This document shows positions 1 through 5,298 of a DNA stretch of 5,298 bases, piece by piece. Under the pieces are notes generated by a model that was not told the DNA's origin, did not search any database, and was given only the letters and a program-made list of their open reading frames with translations. Location: positions 1 through 5,298 of IMG/VR virus record IMGVR_UViG_3300029581_000118; one strand, written 5' to 3'. The number at the start of each line of letters is the position of its first letter. Positions within the stretch are counted from its first letter, which is position 1. The DNA is from a virus. Both the position numbers and the translations under genes were made by a program.

Positions 1-763
1 CTCTATGGTTCGTGTTTATTCTACCGCTGCTCAACCTTCTGGCACTATTGGTTTTTTGGCTTCTTCTTTTAGTCGTTCAGATCGTCTTCTTTCTTTTGGT
101 AATACTTCCGGTTCTTCTTCTGGCTCTTCTACTGATACTTTAGATTCTTTCACTTTTTCTTCCCCCTTTTATTCATACGCTTTTGCTATTCGTGAATCTT
201 CTTCTTCTTCTTCAAGTGGCTATGTTTTACAGGGTGGTTACTCTTCGTTTATTGTACCTCCTAATGCTTATTCTAGTGAGAGGTATATTCATCTTAAGTC
301 TACTCGTTATCTTTTGGGAACTCATTCTTTTGTCCCTTATCCGTCTGGATATACTATTCCGTCTTCTGATATCGGATTTGTCTTTGTGAAGCAACCTTCT
401 TCTTCCCCTGTTTATTCTGCTTCTGCCTTTGATACTACCGGTTCTTTCGCTTTTTCTCTCCTTGTTCCTGCTTCTCGTCTTCCTGACATTAAACTTGGTG
501 ACTGGCTCTCCGATTCTCCGGAGGATTTGCAAGATGCTATTACCAATCAATTTCACATTGATTCCGGTACCCTTAAAGATTCTCAGGATAACTTGAACTC
601 TTGGAATTCTGCTTCCTCTGTTGATTCTGACGTTGCCACGGGCGCTTCTGGTCTTCTTGGTGGTCTTTTCCAGAATTTAGGCACGTTTCTCTTTTCTGTT
701 TCTCTCCTTTGCTTCGGTGCTGTTGTTCTCCGAATGCTCATTAGAAAGGCGGTCGACGGATGA
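1..763 (+). CDS. pIII-like minor coat/adsorption protein, C-terminal part; 5' end cut by the window start, continuing from 4784..5298 across the circular junction
   Basis: Frame-2 ORF that runs unbroken from 4784 through the wrap point to the TGA at 761-763, about 392 aa in total. It has Ser/Gly-rich linker tracts (GNTSGSSSGSSTDT, ESSSSSSSGY) and a C-terminal hydrophobic anchor followed by basic residues (LLGGLFQNLGTFLFSVSLLCFGAVVLRMLIRK). This is the architecture of inovirus pIII. Codon usage is strongly T-ending. Confidence 0.6.
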   Translation, partial: SMVRVYSTAAQPSGTIGFLASSFSRSDRLLSFGNTSGSSSGSSTDTLDSFTFSSPFYSYAFAIRESSSSSSSGYVLQGGYSSFIVPPNAYSSERYIHLKSTRYLLGTHSFVPYPSGYTIPSSDIGFVFVKQPSSSPVYSASAFDTTGSFAFSLLVPASRLPDIKLGDWLSDSPEDLQDAITNQFHIDSGTLKDSQDNLNSWNSASSVDSDVATGASGLLGGLFQNLGTFLFSVSLLCFGAVVLRMLIRKAVDG

Positions 764-891
764 CTTTTCTTGATTTCTTCAAATCAGTTTTCGGCCTTTT
801 CGGTTCTGGCGGCGCTCTCGTCATCGCCGTTGTTGTTTTCCTTGTCGGCCTCGGTATTTATAAGTTCGTAAAGGATTGGTTGCCATGGTAG
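760..891 (+). CDS. small hydrophobic virion/membrane protein (43 aa; pVI- or Pf3-type coat-like)
   Basis: ATG at 760 overlaps the pIII stop (ATGA) and follows an AAAGG Shine-Dalgarno about 10 nt upstream. Product is MTFLDFFKSVFGLFGSGGALVIAVVVFLVGLGIYKFVKDWLPW: an acidic N-terminus, a Gly-rich transmembrane core and a basic C-terminus. It is absent from the ORF track only because it is shorter than 60 aa. Confidence 0.45.
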   Translation: MTFLDFFKSVFGLFGSGGALVIAVVVFLVGLGIYKFVKDWLPW

Positions 892-1052
892 ACTTTGTTT
901 CCGCTCTTGGCGTTTTTACCTCGTTTATTGCTAATGTGCTTTCTATTTCCTTTTTTGGCTTCGGTACTTTTGGCAACTTTATTCTGGTTTGTCTTCTGCT
1001 CTCGCTTGTTGGCTTTGTTCTCCGTGGCCTTTGGGATGGAGGTGATAAATAA
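885..1052 (+). CDS. small two-transmembrane-segment hydrophobic protein (55 aa), possibly pVI-like
   Basis: ATG at 885 overlaps the previous stop (ATGGTAG) and has AAGGA about 9 nt upstream. It ends TAATG, overlapping the next start. Product is MVDFVSALGVFTSFIANVLSISFFGFGTFGNFILVCLLLSLVGFVLRGLWDGGDK. Codon usage matches its neighbours, unlike the alternative track ORF 895..1086. Confidence 0.4.
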   Translation: MVDFVSALGVFTSFIANVLSISFFGFGTFGNFILVCLLLSLVGFVLRGLWDGGDK

Positions 1053-1663
1053 TGGAAGTTCCTGCTATTATCAAAACTTGGGTTGATTCTGACGGCGTCA
1101 CCGTCTACACAGTGCAGTATAAAGATGGCACCACTTGTGATATGACCGTCCAGCAGTATGATTATCTCAAGGCGTCTGCGCAGGCTGTCGCCGATATGGA
1201 TTCTAAAGCCTCCGCTGATTCTCAGCCTGCAGAAACTCCTGTTCCCGCTGAGCCTGCACAGAACATCACCGAAAGTCCAGACCTCCGCGACGGCTATGTA
1301 CCGGAGGAAGGCGAATTGCCTTTTGAGGGGAGTTTGACCGCTTATGATGACCGCGCCGCAGATACTCCGGCTTTGTATGCTAATCTCCCTAACGTCTCTA
1401 ATAGTTTCACTGCTATTATGGATTGGTTCGGCGATACGTTTTTCATCGAACGCACTGAGACGGTGCACAAATCCGGCTTTACGTCTGAAAGGTACTCCTA
1501 TAACAGTGCGACTCAACTTATTCAGTTGCCTTATGAGGAAGATTCCACTACTACGTCTCAGGTTCTCAACCCGCAAGCTTGCGTTTCTGCTTTGCTTGTT
1601 GTCCTTGTCTTCATTACTACTGTTACATGGATTAAGAACGCGATTTGGGGGCGCATGAGCTAA
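1052..1663 (+). CDS. hypothetical acidic protein (203 aa) with a single C-terminal transmembrane anchor and no signal peptide
   Basis: Long ORF that is translationally coupled at both ends (TAATG at 1050-1054 and at 1661-1665). It has a beta-rich N-terminal region (KTWVDSDGVTVYTVQYKDGTTCDMTV), a Pro/Ala/Glu linker (AETPVPAEPAQ), and a C-terminal hydrophobic helix (ACVSALLVVLVFITTVTWI) followed by KNAIWGRMS. I do not recognise the family. Confidence 0.6.
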   Translation: MEVPAIIKTWVDSDGVTVYTVQYKDGTTCDMTVQQYDYLKASAQAVADMDSKASADSQPAETPVPAEPAQNITESPDLRDGYVPEEGELPFEGSLTAYDDRAADTPALYANLPNVSNSFTAIMDWFGDTFFIERTETVHKSGFTSERYSYNSATQLIQLPYEEDSTTTSQVLNPQACVSALLVVLVFITTVTWIKNAIWGRMS

Positions 1664-1776
1664 TGGAAATTTTACCCTTGCAGTATTGTTTCGGCATCTT
1701 CTCTGTCCCCGAGATTGGCTATTTTATTGTCTTCGCCGCTGTTTTCTCTATGTTGGTTCTCCTGCTCCGTCCGTGA
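1663..1776 (+). CDS. small hydrophobic protein (37 aa), candidate pVII/pIX-like minor virion protein
   Basis: ATG overlaps the upstream stop (TAATG). Product is MEILPLQYCFGIFSVPEIGYFIVFAAVFSMLVLLLRP. Its size and hydrophobicity resemble inovirus pVII/pIX. The Shine-Dalgarno is weak. Confidence 0.3.
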   Translation: MEILPLQYCFGIFSVPEIGYFIVFAAVFSMLVLLLRP

Positions 1777-1801
1777 CAGGTGCCATAAATATTTTTATGA
1801 A
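1773..1801 (+). promoter_or_regulatory. possible sigma70-type promoter (GTGACA, 17-nt spacer, TATGAA) upstream of the coat-like gene
   Basis: A -35-like GTGACA at 1773-1778 and a -10-like TATGAA at 1796-1801 are separated by 17 nt in an AT-rich stretch. Ff phages have a strong promoter upstream of gene VIII. This is a weak call. Confidence 0.25.
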
Positions 1802-1877
1802 AGGATGATGACTTCAGGGCCCTACTGCTTCTATTCTTGCCACGCTGCTTTCCTTGGTCGGTGAGTTCTTCACGTCG

Positions 1878-2006
1878 ATGATCACTTGGATGGGTCAGCT
1901 CATTGATTTCTATGAGTCTCAGCCCATTCTCCTCGTCTTCGTGATTCTCACTATCGCGGGCATCGTTCTCCGTATCCTTCGCCGCTGGATTCCCGGTCGC
2001 TCCTAA
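1878..2006 (+). CDS. putative major coat protein (pVIII-like, 42 aa from ATG 1878); the start is uncertain
   Basis: Product is MITWMGQLIDFYESQPILLVFVILTIAGIVLRILRRWIPGRS: an acidic N-terminal segment, a hydrophobic core and four basic residues at the C-terminus, typical of a DNA-contacting coat protein. A strong hairpin terminator follows immediately, as after Ff gene VIII. The frame is open back to 1812 but has no canonical start there. Confidence 0.4.
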   Translation: MITWMGQLIDFYESQPILLVFVILTIAGIVLRILRRWIPGRS

Positions 2007-2015
2007 CGATTGAGA

Positions 2016-2062
2016 GAAAACGCCGCCGACCATTTTTAATGGTCGGCGACGTTTTCTCGTTT
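2016..2062 (+). terminator. strong hairpin (19-nt arms with one mismatch, TTT loop) followed by a T-rich tract; likely intrinsic terminator or mRNA-stabilising hairpin after the coat gene
   Basis: GAAAACGCCGCCGACCATT (2016-2034), TTT loop, then AATGGTCGGCGACGTTTTC (2038-2056): 18 of 19 positions pair. The hairpin is followed by TCGTTT. Confidence 0.5.
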
Positions 2063-2079
2063 AGAAAGGATTATATGTT

Positions 2080-2703
2080 ATGCTTTATGGTATTCTTGTC
2101 TTTTGCGTTTGCTGGCTTTTTGTTTATATCGATAACTATTGCAAAAACCCCTACAAACTTGAGGCTGTTGTTGGTTCAAAAGGTTCTGGCAAGTCTTTGT
2201 ATATGTCTCGTGTTGCTGATAAGTGGCTACGTTCTAATAAGGGGCTTATCTATAGCAATATGGGTATTGGTTATGAGTTAGAGCCGGAATACTGGAAACA
2301 AACCTTTATTCCTGATTCTCTTATCCTTATTGATGAGATAGGCGTGCTACACTCTAACCGTGATTTTAAAACTATGCCCCGTGAAGCTGTTGAGTTTTTC
2401 AAAATGCAACGTAAGTATCATTTGACGATTATTGTATCGTCTCAGACCATGGACTTTGATAAAAAGATACGTGATCTCTGTGACCGTATTTATCTTTGCA
2501 ATCGCATTGGCTGGTTTTGTCGCCTTACTCCGTATCGCTCTTGTATCGCTATGGAACATCGCCCCGAGGGAGGGCAAGAACTGGTTAACACGGTGCGCAA
2601 GGCGGGTCGGGCAAGATGGTATACCATCCCCAAGTCCGTTAAGCAGGTAAGTTCATTAGAATACGATACAGAGCAGGTTATCAGCAAAACCCCCTCGAAG
2701 TAA
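2080..2703 (+). CDS. Zot/pI-like P-loop assembly ATPase (207 aa)
   Basis: GAAAGGA Shine-Dalgarno 9 nt upstream of the ATG. Walker A is GSKGSGKS; a Walker-B-like LILIDEIG and a downstream block (KYHLTIIVSSQTMDFDKKIRDLCDRIYLCNRI) parallel the GSGKT, VLDECG and IIFLVQDLSIVDKQAR motifs of M13 pI and Zot. The N-terminus is hydrophobic (LYGILVFCVCWLFVYI). Confidence 0.8.
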   Translation: MLYGILVFCVCWLFVYIDNYCKNPYKLEAVVGSKGSGKSLYMSRVADKWLRSNKGLIYSNMGIGYELEPEYWKQTFIPDSLILIDEIGVLHSNRDFKTMPREAVEFFKMQRKYHLTIIVSSQTMDFDKKIRDLCDRIYLCNRIGWFCRLTPYRSCIAMEHRPEGGQELVNTVRKAGRARWYTIPKSVKQVSSLEYDTEQVISKTPSK

Positions 2704-2784
2704 AAAAACTTCCCCTGAAAAAAAGAAGTAGGCAGTCGCCACGTTTAGTCACGCGATAGCGTCTCCACCGCGTCCCCCGTCCCC

Positions 2785-2803
2785 GCAAGGGCAAAGCCCT
2801 TGC
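2785..2803. repeat. perfect 8-bp stem hairpin, GCAAGGGC-AAA-GCCCTTGC
   Basis: Direct base-pair check within the GC-rich part of the intergenic region. Confidence 0.6.
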
Positions 2804-2856
2804 CCTTCCTAAACAGGCTGGCAGGGGCTTCCGATTCGTAGTGACTGCCGTGACGT

Positions 2857-2895
2857 GGTGGGCGTGCGTGTAATACGCCCACCTTTTTTAAATTT
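2857..2895 (+). terminator. rho-independent terminator-like hairpin plus T tract
   Basis: GGTGGGCGT (2857-2865), a 9-nt loop GCGTGTAAT, then ACGCCCACC (2875-2883) form a 9-bp GC-rich stem. It is followed directly by TTTTTTAAATTT. Confidence 0.5.
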
Positions 2896-2924
2896 CCTCG
2901 GCAGTTCGTGCGCGTGCTGGCCGG

Positions 2925-2941
2925 TGCTCGCTTCGCGAGCA
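2925..2941. repeat. 7-bp hairpin TGCTCGC-TTC-GCGAGCA
   Basis: Inverted repeat that sits immediately upstream of the 12-bp hairpin. Confidence 0.4.
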
Positions 2942-2969
2942 TGAATCAAAAACTTCGTTTTTGATTCAA
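2942..2969. repeat. perfect 12-bp stem hairpin with a TTCG loop: TGAATCAAAAAC-TTCG-GTTTTTGATTCA
   Basis: Exact reverse-complement arms. The TGAATCAAAA motif recurs at 3024-3034 and, in inverted orientation, at 3061-3067. Confidence 0.65.
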
Positions 2970-3023
2970 GGCCATAGGGGCGCCAATTAAGGAAAGTAGG
3001 AAATGGGGATTAATTTTTTTGTC

Positions 3024-3067
3024 TTGAATCAAAATTTTTTTGTCCGCGAAAAAAATTTTAGATTCAA
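3024..3067. repeat. 18-bp A/T-rich palindrome (one bulged A) around a GTCCGCG loop; candidate origin / DNA-unwinding element
   Basis: TTGAATCAAAATTTTTTT (3024-3041) pairs with AAAAAAATTTT-A-GATTCAA (3049-3067). It is almost pure A/T and is flanked by the TGAATCAAAA repeats. Confidence 0.55.
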
Positions 3068-3143
3068 AAAAAAAATTGATCCACATTTGCTACTTTCGGC
3101 GCCCCGTCCATCGTTATTGCGTCTCCCCTTGATAAATTTCCTC

Positions 3144-3172
3144 TTGACAGCTCCTTCATATTGTGTTAATAT
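3144..3172 (+). promoter_or_regulatory. near-consensus sigma70 promoter for the rep gene
   Basis: -35 TTGACA at 3144-3149, a 17-nt spacer, and -10 TAATAT at 3167-3172 preceded by TGt (extended -10). There is an A/T-rich UP-like tract upstream. The predicted transcription start is about 25 nt before the rep Shine-Dalgarno/ATG. Confidence 0.6.
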
Positions 3173-3204
3173 TCAACCATGGAAATGAAAGGTGGTTTTC
3201 TCAC

Positions 3205-4341
3205 ATGAAAACGGTTGTTAAACTTGACTATGCCACGTTTGCTTTTGAACAAGGTTCGATTTCTATTCCTAAAATCGAAGACGCGCTTGCTCAGTGCGAC
3301 TTACATTTTGCTCAGACTTCCAACGCAAGTGAGAATTCCCCCTACAATTCCCCTGCGGGCCTTTTCTTTAAGCCGAACAACGGCGCGAAACAGTCTCCGC
3401 ACTCCTTGCAAGTGTCCGGTCATGGTTGTGAGCTTTTCCGTCCCACATTGCCGCGGCTTGCGTCACTGATGCAGGATGGTCACGAATTCGGTCATTTTTC
3501 TCGTCTCGATTTTTGCTTTGATGTTGTCATGACAAAGCAGCGGTGGCGCGAGTTTTATTTGGGTGTTATTTCTGCTTCTGTGGATGAAATGAATTGCCCT
3601 GAAAAAGCCCGTAAGGTTCGCAAGTTCATGTATCAGGGTTACGGCGATTCTACTACCGTTTATATCGGGCGCAGAACGTCTTCTGCAGTTTTTTGCCGTA
3701 TCTATAATAAATCACTGCAAGACCCTGATAAAAAGCTCTGTACGGCTTCTGGTGAGCTTCTGGATTGCCCCGATGATTCCTATATCATTCGTTACGAGAT
3801 GGAGTTGAAATTTACTTCTCGTGTACGTTCTGGTTCTCGTTCCGTCTATGACCCGTCTCCGCTTTTCTGGTTCTACTATGAAGACCCTGAGAAGCTCTTC
3901 GCTTATCTTCGTAAAGTCTGGAATCGTTACGGGAATGAAACTCTTCTCCCTGATGGCTGGGAAGATATGTATTTTGTGACTGATATTGAAGCTCGCAACA
4001 TTCAGTTTATTAAGGACTTATTGCATCCCCTTAGTAATGACCTTGCTCAAAAGTTCTCCGTTTCTATCCATACCGAAGAACAAAAAATGTCTTATGTTGC
4101 TAATGTCTTTGGGCATCGTATCATTGATATCCTGCTTTATCGTCCTGAGCTTCTTTTTCTCGCTTGTTGTAAGTGGGAGCAGTATTATAATGAGCGTCTT
4201 CCGTTTTCCTCTCTGTCGCTTACACAGGAAGTTGCACAATTCTCTGAGTCTTCGCGCATTGCTGTTGAGGAGTTCCGCGAAGTTGCTGAAGACCCCTCTC
4301 CCTTTAGTGAAGATGGGTTTGATGATATATCTTTATTCTGA
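3205..4341 (+). CDS. rolling-circle replication initiation protein (Rep_trans / gene II-like), about 378 aa
   Basis: GAAAGGTGG Shine-Dalgarno 9 nt upstream of ATG 3205; the track ORF from GTG 3163 would begin inside the promoter -10. The N-terminal KLDYATFAF resembles the conserved N-terminal motif of Rep_trans initiators. TTVYIGRRTS matches the catalytic-Tyr motif (TxYxGxRxS) of that family. The gene sits directly downstream of the hairpin-rich intergenic region. Confidence 0.75.
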   Translation: MKTVVKLDYATFAFEQGSISIPKIEDALAQCDLHFAQTSNASENSPYNSPAGLFFKPNNGAKQSPHSLQVSGHGCELFRPTLPRLASLMQDGHEFGHFSRLDFCFDVVMTKQRWREFYLGVISASVDEMNCPEKARKVRKFMYQGYGDSTTVYIGRRTSSAVFCRIYNKSLQDPDKKLCTASGELLDCPDDSYIIRYEMELKFTSRVRSGSRSVYDPSPLFWFYYEDPEKLFAYLRKVWNRYGNETLLPDGWEDMYFVTDIEARNIQFIKDLLHPLSNDLAQKFSVSIHTEEQKMSYVANVFGHRIIDILLYRPELLFLACCKWEQYYNERLPFSSLSLTQEVAQFSESSRIAVEEFREVAEDPSPFSEDGFDDISLF

Positions 4342-4359
4342 TGAAAGGATGGTCGCTCT

Positions 4360-4602
4360 ATGAAAGTTACTGTAGTTGGTAAGTCCCGCCGCGCTGGTAC
4401 ATCTAAGCAGGGCAAAGACTATGATTTTACTACTCTCATGGCCGAATATTCGATGCGTGCAAACGATGACAATGACGGCGTACAGGTTGATAGAATCAAT
4501 GTCGATTCTCGCATGATGCCGTATGCGCTCATTGTCGTTGGCGCTACGTATGACCTCGACTTTGACCGCAACGGATATCTCCTTGGAATTGAGGAAGTTT
4601 AA
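4360..4602 (+). CDS. gene V-like ssDNA-binding protein (80 aa)
   Basis: AAAGGA Shine-Dalgarno 10 nt upstream. The N-terminus MKVTVVGKSRRAGTSKQGKDYDF parallels M13 gV MIKVEIKPSQAQFTTRSGVSRQGKPYSL, sharing the S-(R/K)-QGK-x-Y motif. Its size and its position right after rep also fit. Confidence 0.7.
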   Translation: MKVTVVGKSRRAGTSKQGKDYDFTTLMAEYSMRANDDNDGVQVDRINVDSRMMPYALIVVGATYDLDFDRNGYLLGIEEV

Positions 4603-4638
4603 CTTCCTTTGTTCAAACCCGAATTTCATTTCCTATGG

Positions 4639-4658
4639 GAGAGCGGTTCGCCGCTCTC
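4639..4658 (+). other. perfect 8-bp hairpin with a TTCG loop: GAGAGCGG-TTCG-CCGCTCTC
   Basis: Exact inverted repeat between the gene V stop and the tRNA, with a UUCG tetraloop if transcribed. It could be a processing or stability element, or weak terminator. Confidence 0.5.
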
Positions 4659-4662
4659 ACAT

Positions 4663-4736
4663 GGCGGGGTGGTGCAATGGTAGCACGTCGCGCTCTGAAC
4701 GCGAAGCTGTAGGTTCAAATCCTAACCCCGCAACCA
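4663..4736 (+). tRNA. tRNA with anticodon CUG (Gln-like), 74 nt including an encoded CCA; G1-A72 and G49-A65 are mismatched
   Basis: Manual cloverleaf: acceptor GGCGGGG paired with CCCCGCA (6 of 7 positions); U8; D-stem GTGC/GCAC with loop AATGGTA (G18G19 present); anticodon stem TCGCG/CGCGA with loop CTCTGAA (U33, anticodon CTG, A37); 4-nt variable loop; T-arm GTAGG-TTCAAAT-CCTAA with the consensus GGTTCAAATCC; discriminator A followed by CCA. Confidence 0.6.
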
Positions 4737-4783
4737 AAACGGATTGACCTCCGTTATTCGATGCCGCGAAAGGTGGTGGCGAA

Positions 4784-5298
4784 GTGAAGAAAATGCAGCG
4801 GCGTTTTTATAAGCGCTTCGCCGCCCTTGTCGCGGCTCTGACGGTTTCTTTTTCTTTGTGTACTCCTTGTTTTGCTGGATTTGAAACGGAAGCTGATATG
4901 CCATCTTTGGATGATTTTTATAAAAATCATGGCTCTTGGTATGTTTGGCGTTCTGCTACTCTTTCTGGTTTCTCTTATTATGAGTTGCTTTGCTCTCCTA
5001 TTTCTGTTTCTGGCACTTCTTATTCTCTGCCTTATTCGGTTACTTATTCTACAGATGCGTTTGATGTTTCTTATCTAGCTAATGATTCTGGCTTAGCTTA
5101 TGATTACGCTTGCGCTTTTCCTCTTCCTCTCCGTGGTGCTTCTGGTTATTGGTCTGAATTACCTTCTTTCCCTATTGGTATGAGCACGAATTTTGAAGCC
5201 TCTATGGTTCGTGTTTATTCTACCGCTGCTCAACCTTCTGGCACTATTGGTTTTTTGGCTTCTTCTTTTAGTCGTTCAGATCGTCTTCTTTCTTTTGG
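4784..5298 (+). CDS. pIII-like minor coat/adsorption protein, N-terminal part with signal peptide; runs off the window end and continues at 100..763
   Basis: GTG 4784 lies 7 nt after the AAGGTGG Shine-Dalgarno; the alternative ATG is at 4793. The N-terminus MKKMQRRFYKRFAALVAALTVSFSLCTPCFA-GFETEAD is a classic Sec signal peptide with a basic n-region, a hydrophobic core and an AxA-like cleavage site. The frame stays open to the window end and is identical to 1..99 across the junction. Confidence 0.65.
   Translation, partial: MKKMQRRFYKRFAALVAALTVSFSLCTPCFAGFETEADMPSLDDFYKNHGSWYVWRSATLSGFSYYELLCSPISVSGTSYSLPYSVTYSTDAFDVSYLANDSGLAYDYACAFPLPLRGASGYWSELPSFPIGMSTNFEASMVRVYSTAAQPSGTIGFLASSFSRSDRLLSF
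5200..5298. repeat. terminal redundancy of the window: 5200-5298 is identical to 1-99, so the molecule is circular (about 5,199 nt) or tandemly repeated
   Basis: Base-by-base comparison of both ends. CTCTATGGTTCGTG...TCTTTCTTTTGG is present at both. Confidence 0.85.

Follow-up and report, generated by a model that had tools for sequence, protein, structure and literature searches.

The open reading frame (ORF) at 2080-2703 on the + strand of the IMG/VR virus record IMGVR_UViG_3300029581_000118 very probably encodes the morphogenesis ATPase of the "atypical" pI class, tethered to the membrane by its N-terminus, in a phage of a monoderm, Clostridia-type host for which a secretin is unneeded. 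The window that we analyzed, positions 1 to 5,298 of this record (5,298 nucleotides), represents the entire circular genome (about 5.2 kb) of a filamentous phage of the order Tubulavirales. Its last 99 bases repeat the first 99, giving a circular genome of 5199 nt; the gene content matches that of a small filamentous single-stranded DNA (ssDNA) phage, and every plausible gene lies on the T-rich + strand. A first-pass annotation had noticed the short ATPase, the position of its hydrophobic segment and the lack of a secretin gene. These observations hold, but the proposal built on them, that the inovirus export machinery has a new variant here, is mistaken, as the class was described by Roux et al. 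(2019) and the same layout is present in cultured Spiroplasma phages.

The atypical class, iPF_00013, is one of two pI classes in that study (Roux et al., 2019; Nat Microbiol, PMC6813254, Methods and Supplementary Notes). Its members have a Zot domain without C-terminal extension and a transmembrane domain that is usually N-terminal (Roux et al., 2019; PMC6813254). The family occurs predominantly in Gram-positive hosts; among its members are isolates from Propionibacterium, Thermus and Spiroplasma (Roux et al., 2019; PMC6813254). A short, N-anchored ATPase in a genome without secretin gene is a documented pI architecture of inoviruses of monoderm hosts, and by the published features of the class the present protein is a probable member of iPF_00013. 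The features of the gene are the following.

2080..2703, + strand, ATG to TAA: pI/Zot-like morphogenesis ATPase gene, 207 amino acids (aa); Pfam Zot, PHROG 197 and a fold match to 2R2A.
2080..2142, + strand: N-terminal membrane-anchor helix, residues 1-21, predicted N-out/C-in; apolarity, helix in the AlphaFold2 (AF2) model and bias in lysine and arginine (K/R).
2146..2154, + strand: N-P-Y juxtamembrane motif, residues 23-25, between the anchor and strand beta-1; alignment A1.
2173..2196, + strand: Walker A, GSKGSGKS, residues 32-39; invariant in 38 aligned homologues.
2320..2337, + strand: Walker B, LILIDE, residues 81-86; L81, I84, D85 and E86 invariant.
2064..2069, + strand: Shine-Dalgarno-like AAAGGA, about 10 nt 5' of ATG 2080; read from the sequence.
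2024..2048, + strand: terminator-like hairpin of 11 GC-rich pairs followed by a T-rich tail, between the coat-like and ATPase genes.

The ORF was found exactly as it had first been described, with an ATG start and a product of 207 aa, and its proposed relationship to Zot and pI was borne out by Pfam, PHROG and fold comparisons alike. The Pfam search that had been suggested as a check places the 207-aa product in the Zot family (PF05707) with 25.6 bits, above the gathering cut-off of 20.3 (E 1e-5, profile positions 75-157). It also matches PHROG 197, "Zot-like toxin", at 1.8e-9 and PHROG 1675, that of M13 protein I, at 1.5e-3, and most of its homologues have a precomputed PF05707 match. The family profile aligns to residues 81-151 of M13 pI, from Walker B to the sensor region. 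A direct sequence search of the PDB returned only a chance match, 53BP1, and a fold search was used instead. The AF2 model, built from 38 homologues (mean predicted local distance difference test score, pLDDT, 83; predicted template modelling score, pTM, 0.78), matches the Zot N-terminal domain, 2R2A, best among PDB structures (E 1.9e-7, TM-score 0.52-0.56, Foldseek).

The Foldseek list also includes RecA/KaiC-like proteins and the STIV B204 packaging ATPase at E ~1e-5, and Roux et al. (2019) cautioned about STIV-like false positives. The product could on these grounds be a P-loop NTPase with another role, such as DNA translocation or replication in a non-filamentous mobile element, rather than one in virion assembly. 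We consider this very improbable: Zot is the top match by Pfam, PHROG and fold, and the gene sits in an inovirus context made of a rolling-circle replication (RCR) Rep, several single-transmembrane proteins of 40-60 aa, a pIII-like protein and a genome of ~5.2 kb with all genes on one strand.

With 207 aa against 348 aa for M13 pI, the ORF is indeed short. This is the sole point in favor of a truncation by frameshift or assembly error, in which case the true protein would carry a C-terminal transmembrane segment and an outside domain like those of M13 pI. The conserved length and stop position rule out such an artefact, and we give this explanation practically no credence. Among 5.8 billion clustered proteins, a search recovered 84 relatives. 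Most have 200-260 aa, shorter ones being apparently truncated gene calls, and most are on contigs of less than 7 kb, which is the size of whole genomes of this kind. More than 80 clusters, from independent assemblies, show a similar length (~205-260 aa), and where the tail is longer it is hydrophilic. In the homologue alignment, close homologues end at the same conserved C-terminal motif, Y-x-T-E-Q-I-I-S-K, which is followed by a short hydrophilic tail and the stop; the present ATPase ends in such a tail ~60 residues after the last position of the Zot profile. The 90% cluster of the nearest homologue contains 3081 member sequences. Downstream, the + strand ORFs between the ATPase gene and position 3163 do not exceed 61 aa and lie in a hairpin-rich intergenic region.

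The layout is also widespread. A profile search of 1.84 billion cluster representatives (clusters at 50% identity) found at least 1501 relatives at E<1e-3. We counted layouts in the 147 listed matches that were not among the 84 earlier homologues: an N-terminal transmembrane segment alone is present in 113 of the 147, an N-terminal and a later one in 11, and a C-terminal one alone in a single protein. The remaining 22 have no hydrophobic segment, and in about half of these the gene call is truncated at its N-terminus and Walker A lies before residue 22.

The sole hydrophobic segment of the protein is N-terminal, before Walker A, as had been noted. Residues 1-17 (MLYGILVFCVCWLFVYI) are apolar, with no charged residue and no N, Q, H or P; the Kyte-Doolittle mean over 17 residues is 2.45 for the identical N-terminus of homologue P0018, and residues 2-21 form a single helix in the AF2 model (pLDDT >90). 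Walker A follows at residues 32-39 and Walker B at 81-86. Beyond residue 40, no window of 19 residues has a mean hydropathy above 1.0; as a positive control, the same scan recovers the known transmembrane segment of M13 pI at 254-270. All homologues whose N-terminus is present have an N-terminal apolar segment, and their Walker A usually lies at ~31-39. The sequence of the anchor varies among these homologues while its position, length and apolar character are kept. In the 187 homologues with Walker A at residues 28-42, the apolar stretch has a mean of 17 residues. Because position and character persist in these 187 proteins while the sequence changes, the feature is not a product of chance or composition. 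Residues N23 and P24 are near-invariant and Y25 is invariant in alignment A1; the N-P-Y motif that they form is specific to the present subfamily.

In the same 187 homologues, the tail that precedes the apolar stretch has a mean of 1.4 residues and 0.22 K/R, and the ~14 residues between the stretch and Walker A contain 2.47 K/R. By the positive-inside rule, this bias points to an N-out/C-in topology with the ATPase in the cytoplasm, the opposite of what is expected of a cleavable signal peptide. As the first-pass annotation stated, there is no alternative start in frame: ATG, GTG and TTG are absent between 2080 and Walker A, and also upstream as far as the in-frame stop. The ATG at 2039 was rejected as a start, since it heads an 80-aa ORF in another frame, inside the hairpin at 2024-2048; in relative P0002 its counterpart is fused in frame, by gene calling only. 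The Shine-Dalgarno sequence had been called optimal. A ribosome-binding site is present, with AAAGGA at 2064-2069, ~10 nt upstream of the ATG, but it is good rather than optimal.

One might still argue that the N-terminal stretch is not a stable anchor, and that it is either cleaved as a signal peptide or left untranslated with the real start downstream. The stretch is short, with 16-17 apolar residues, and the T-rich coding strand favors hydrophobic codons. Against this stand the absence of any in-frame start codon between 2080 and Walker A, the lack of a basic n-region before the stretch with the K/R enriched after it instead, and the hydrophobic character kept despite sequence divergence. 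Furthermore, an ATPase outside the cell would have no ATP supply. This explanation is hardly credible to us, and we retain the membrane anchor.

We turn to the secretin. No ORF of the circular genome matches the Secretin domain of Pfam, which agrees with the first-pass annotation, and no Pfam family other than Zot and Rep_trans was found in these ORFs. The consequence drawn there, that assembly has to depend on a host secretin or another partner, is probably wrong as to the secretin, as integrated relatives lie in Clostridia-type chromosomes, those of hosts without outer membrane. A scan of one genome per prokaryotic species returned four relatives. The closest integrated one, L001 (CAVDWO010000002.1), has a Zot protein 82% identical to that of the window and 72.5% nucleotide identity over 1.8 kb. 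It is located at the end of a 96-kb contig whose GC content passes from ~0.47 in the phage part to ~0.62 in the flank. The flank encodes RadA, CotJA-CotJB, a CotJC-type Mn-catalase and an MFS transporter, among others. CotJA and CotJB are spore-coat proteins, typical of Firmicutes that form endospores. The named proteins that this RadA matches, at 77-79% identity, come exclusively from Oscillospiraceae, Ruminococcaceae or Eubacteriales, with none from Bacteroidota.

The metagenome-assembled genome (MAG) to which L001 belongs is labelled "Alistipes onderdonkii". We rejected this label as evidence for the host; it is almost certainly a binning error, because the CotJA/B/C genes and the RadA matches (contig positions 2954-9804) point to an Oscillospiraceae-type host. 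The other three loci are on small contigs binned with Roseburia, Clostridia and Oscillospiraceae. A further relative, L005 (P0056, 1781-6000), is integrated with bacterial genes on both sides; its RadA is only 55% identical to the RadA of L001 and to named Oscillospiraceae proteins. Published host predictions for faecal relatives are all Firmicutes: lemur faecal inoviruses, including Dulem virus 75 (whose Zot is 55% identical), have Ruthenibacterium, Enterocloster and Thomasclavia (sic) as predicted hosts (PMC11281440). Enterocloster species secrete inoviruses (PMC10061712).

From these relatives, the host is most likely a monoderm gut bacterium of Clostridium type. In a host without outer membrane, there is no role for a secretin, nor for the periplasmic, secretin-contacting C-terminal part of pI and pXI. 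The alternative is a diderm host whose own secretin is used, as CTXphi uses EpsD, by an ATPase that has no periplasmic connector, which would imply a different coupling mechanism. A genome without secretin gene is compatible with this, and the closest integrated relative does come from a MAG labelled with a diderm, a weak point given that the label looks wrong. The spore-coat genes in the flank of L001, the affiliation of its RadA, the binning of the other relatives, the published predictions and the link made by Roux et al. (2019) between this layout and monoderm hosts all argue against it, and we regard a diderm host as improbable.

Both integrated relatives, L001 (junction at ~2950) and L005, adjoin or lie within 3 kb of radA, whose neighbourhood could be a preferred integration site. 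The junctions of these two relatives contain no tRNA, and around the L005 prophage we found no convincing att repeat, only a 12-mer.

Several points weigh against the reading of an N-tethered pI in a monoderm host. The family resembles M13 pI and the Spiroplasma phage proteins only weakly (hhalign ~60% probability, 13-22 bits). The predicted topology is based on hydropathy, the positive-inside rule and the AF2 helix, and an apolar stretch of only 16-17 residues is short for spanning a bilayer. The host is deduced through a relative with 72.5% nucleotide identity over 1.8 kb, on a contig that is labelled Alistipes, if misbinned in our judgment. Finally, the pI of Propionibacterium phage B5, which Roux et al. 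(2019) placed in the atypical family, has no N-terminal hydrophobic segment by hydropathy. We therefore rejected this phage as an isolate example: in the annotated Orf8, Walker A is at residue 20, there is no hydrophobic segment and no in-frame upstream extension. The profile similarity of Orf8 is weak, and the result fits the word "usually" in the description of the class.

A mechanism can be proposed on the basis of sequence features and of what is established for Ff phages. The N-terminal helix, with its very short outside tail and its K/R-rich inside, would tether a cytoplasmic Zot-type P-loop domain to the cell membrane, where the ATPase presumably oligomerises. ATP use by this oligomeric motor would then drive the loading of membrane-inserted coat proteins (the products of 1854-2006 and 760-891 are candidates) onto ssDNA and the extrusion of the filament. 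The link between motor and pIV secretin is made, in Ff phages, by pXI and by the transmembrane and periplasmic C-terminal part of pI; a host without outer membrane, as we suppose for the present genome, would need neither this part nor a secretin. In Ff, a terminator after gene VIII keeps the expression of gene I low. By analogy, the hairpin at 2024-2048 may attenuate expression of the ATPase gene.

A bolder version can be envisioned for the minimal clade, with ATPases of 205-260 aa and genomes of 4-5.5 kb: the N-terminal helices, one per subunit and arranged as a ring in the ATPase oligomer, might constitute, with the N-P-Y motif, the whole membrane export site, with no pXI-like partner or channel protein. 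We see this as an outside chance. If true, no filamentous-phage extrusion machine would be smaller, and it would offer a tractable model of filament exit from Gram-positive cells.

Gene order in the remainder of the genome, read from the promoter at 3144-3172, is Rep, the SSB-like gene, tRNA-Gln(CTG), the pIII-like gene, the genes of small single-helix proteins and of a 203-aa protein, the hairpin, the ATPase gene and the intergenic region. The corresponding features are listed here.

3144..3172, + strand: best sigma-70-like promoter, TTGACA-17-TAATAT with TG, 5' of the Rep gene.
3205..4341, + strand: rolling-circle replication initiator (Rep_trans); Pfam Rep_trans, PHROG 27843.
4360..4602, + strand: 80-aa ssDNA-binding-like protein; weak PHROG 929 and 2866 matches.
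4663..4736, + strand: complete tRNA-Gln(CTG) with encoded CCA; ARAGORN, and Rfam tRNA at 55.4 bits over the full length.
4793..5298 then 5..763, + strand: 389-aa pIII-like protein with a signal-peptide-like N-terminus, Ser-rich linkers and a C-terminal anchor; ORF reconstructed over the circular junction.
760..1052 (760-891 and 876-1052), + strand: two small hydrophobic proteins of 43 aa and 58 aa, candidate coat or minor coat proteins.
1052..1663, + strand: 203-aa protein, hydrophobic anchor at the C-terminus; match to PHROG 27347 (unknown function).
1645-1776, + strand: further small single-helix protein.
1854..2006, + strand: 50-aa coat-like protein with an acidic N-terminus, one hydrophobic helix and a basic C-terminus, RILRRWIPGRS; from the translation.
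2857..2883, + strand: second terminator-like hairpin, intergenic, 3' of the ATPase gene.

The Rep protein scores 29.0 bits against Rep_trans, just below the cut-off of 29.6, and PHROG 27843 aligns to its residues 15-392. Since this match begins at residue 15, the start of Rep is likely ATG 3205 and not GTG 3163. The product of 4360-4602 is SSB-like by its position and size. A Pfam search with the 389-aa pIII-like protein returned no match. The features of the 1854-2006 product suggest that it is the major coat protein, and the 203-aa protein is probably a virion or assembly protein. The intergenic region at 2704-3162 (~460 nt) is the most GC-rich part of the genome (0.53) and probably holds the replication origin and packaging signal. 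Within it, at 2941-3070, A/T runs flank "GATTCAA" repeats.

Filamentous ssDNA phages of 5 kb do not usually carry a tRNA gene. The gene of the present phage is complete, with an encoded CCA, and lies between the SSB-like and pIII-like genes; some relatives also have one (L008, 971-1044; L002, 1945-2018; L004, 1470-1544). The anticodons differ, with tRNA-Gln(CTG) in the window and in MT135292, tRNA-Gln(TTG) in L002 and tRNA-Thr(AGT) in L004. Between the window and MT135292, the anticodon stem has changed on both sides in an apparently compensatory manner, which suggests that selection maintains the tRNA fold and that the gene is no remnant of attP. The genome encodes no integrase, and we rejected the tRNA as an attachment site in view of the L001 and L005 junctions. 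The glutamine codons of the phage comprise 29 CAG and 15 CAA.

The discovery value of these results is low, since the 2019 study had already described this layout, with its link to hosts that lack an outer membrane, and the layout could be seen in Spiroplasma phage records that have long been public. They nevertheless correct database labels. Among the GenBank records MT135292/293/296/305 and MT135313, the porcine "Inovirus sp." ones have the 96%-identical ATPase gene annotated as "protein H" and its neighbours as "protein F" and "protein C", which are microvirus names. The label "replication factor C large subunit" is found on one relative, and the PHROG that contains this ATPase, 25712, is listed with "unknown function". 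Labels such as "protein H" hide the pI/Zot nature of the gene. Our analysis also shows that the N-anchored layout dominates a large metagenomic group, of the at least 1501 clusters given above, and it points to Oscillospiraceae-type Clostridia as hosts of a widespread group of tiny filamentous phages of the gut.

How does this ATPase compare with those of known systems? With pI of M13 and other Ff phages, it shares a Zot-type P-loop core that is conserved from Walker B to the sensor region, the position of the gene at the end of the structural module, and a predicted membrane tether with a cytoplasmic ATPase. It does not have the canonical Ff-type architecture. M13 pI, a protein of 348 aa, has Walker A at residue 8, a transmembrane segment at 254-270 and a periplasmic C-terminal domain, and M13 also has an internal start for pXI and a secretin gene of its own (pIV). 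Here, Walker A is at residue 32, no transmembrane segment follows it, and the internal start, the periplasmic domain and the phage secretin are all absent.

The cultured Spiroplasma phages (Plectroviridae) are closer in layout. SpV1-R8A2B ORF2 and SVTS2 p01 have one or two N-terminal hydrophobic segments followed by Walker A and no C-terminal transmembrane segment, and their hosts lack an outer membrane. Both proteins are longer (337 and 336 aa), with Walker A at residues 82 and 94 and a larger N-terminal membrane part, and their match to the profile of the present family is weak (13-18 bits). One of the two phages, moreover, replicates with a transposase-like protein and not with Rep_trans.

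The nearest relatives are gut and faecal inoviruses. The ATPase shows 95-96% identity to that of the porcine "Inovirus sp." MT135292/293/296/305. The values for Dulem virus 75 and bajarodino viruses 60 and 79 are 55-59%. All of these have the same ATPase lengths and genomes of 4-5.5 kb. At the genome level, only 26-39% of the window aligns to gut or faecal inovirus genomes, with 84-85% nucleotide identity.

As in iPF_00013, the present protein combines a Zot domain without C-terminal extension with a single N-terminal transmembrane domain. The phage resembles iPF_00013 viruses in its small genome, its RCR Rep, its short structural proteins with one transmembrane domain (43-58 aa here) and its lack of a secretin; judging by its relatives, an association with a Gram-positive, monoderm host is likely as well. 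Relative to that class, the present subfamily is set apart by its place at the short end of the length range (205-260 aa) and by an N-P-Y motif of its own.

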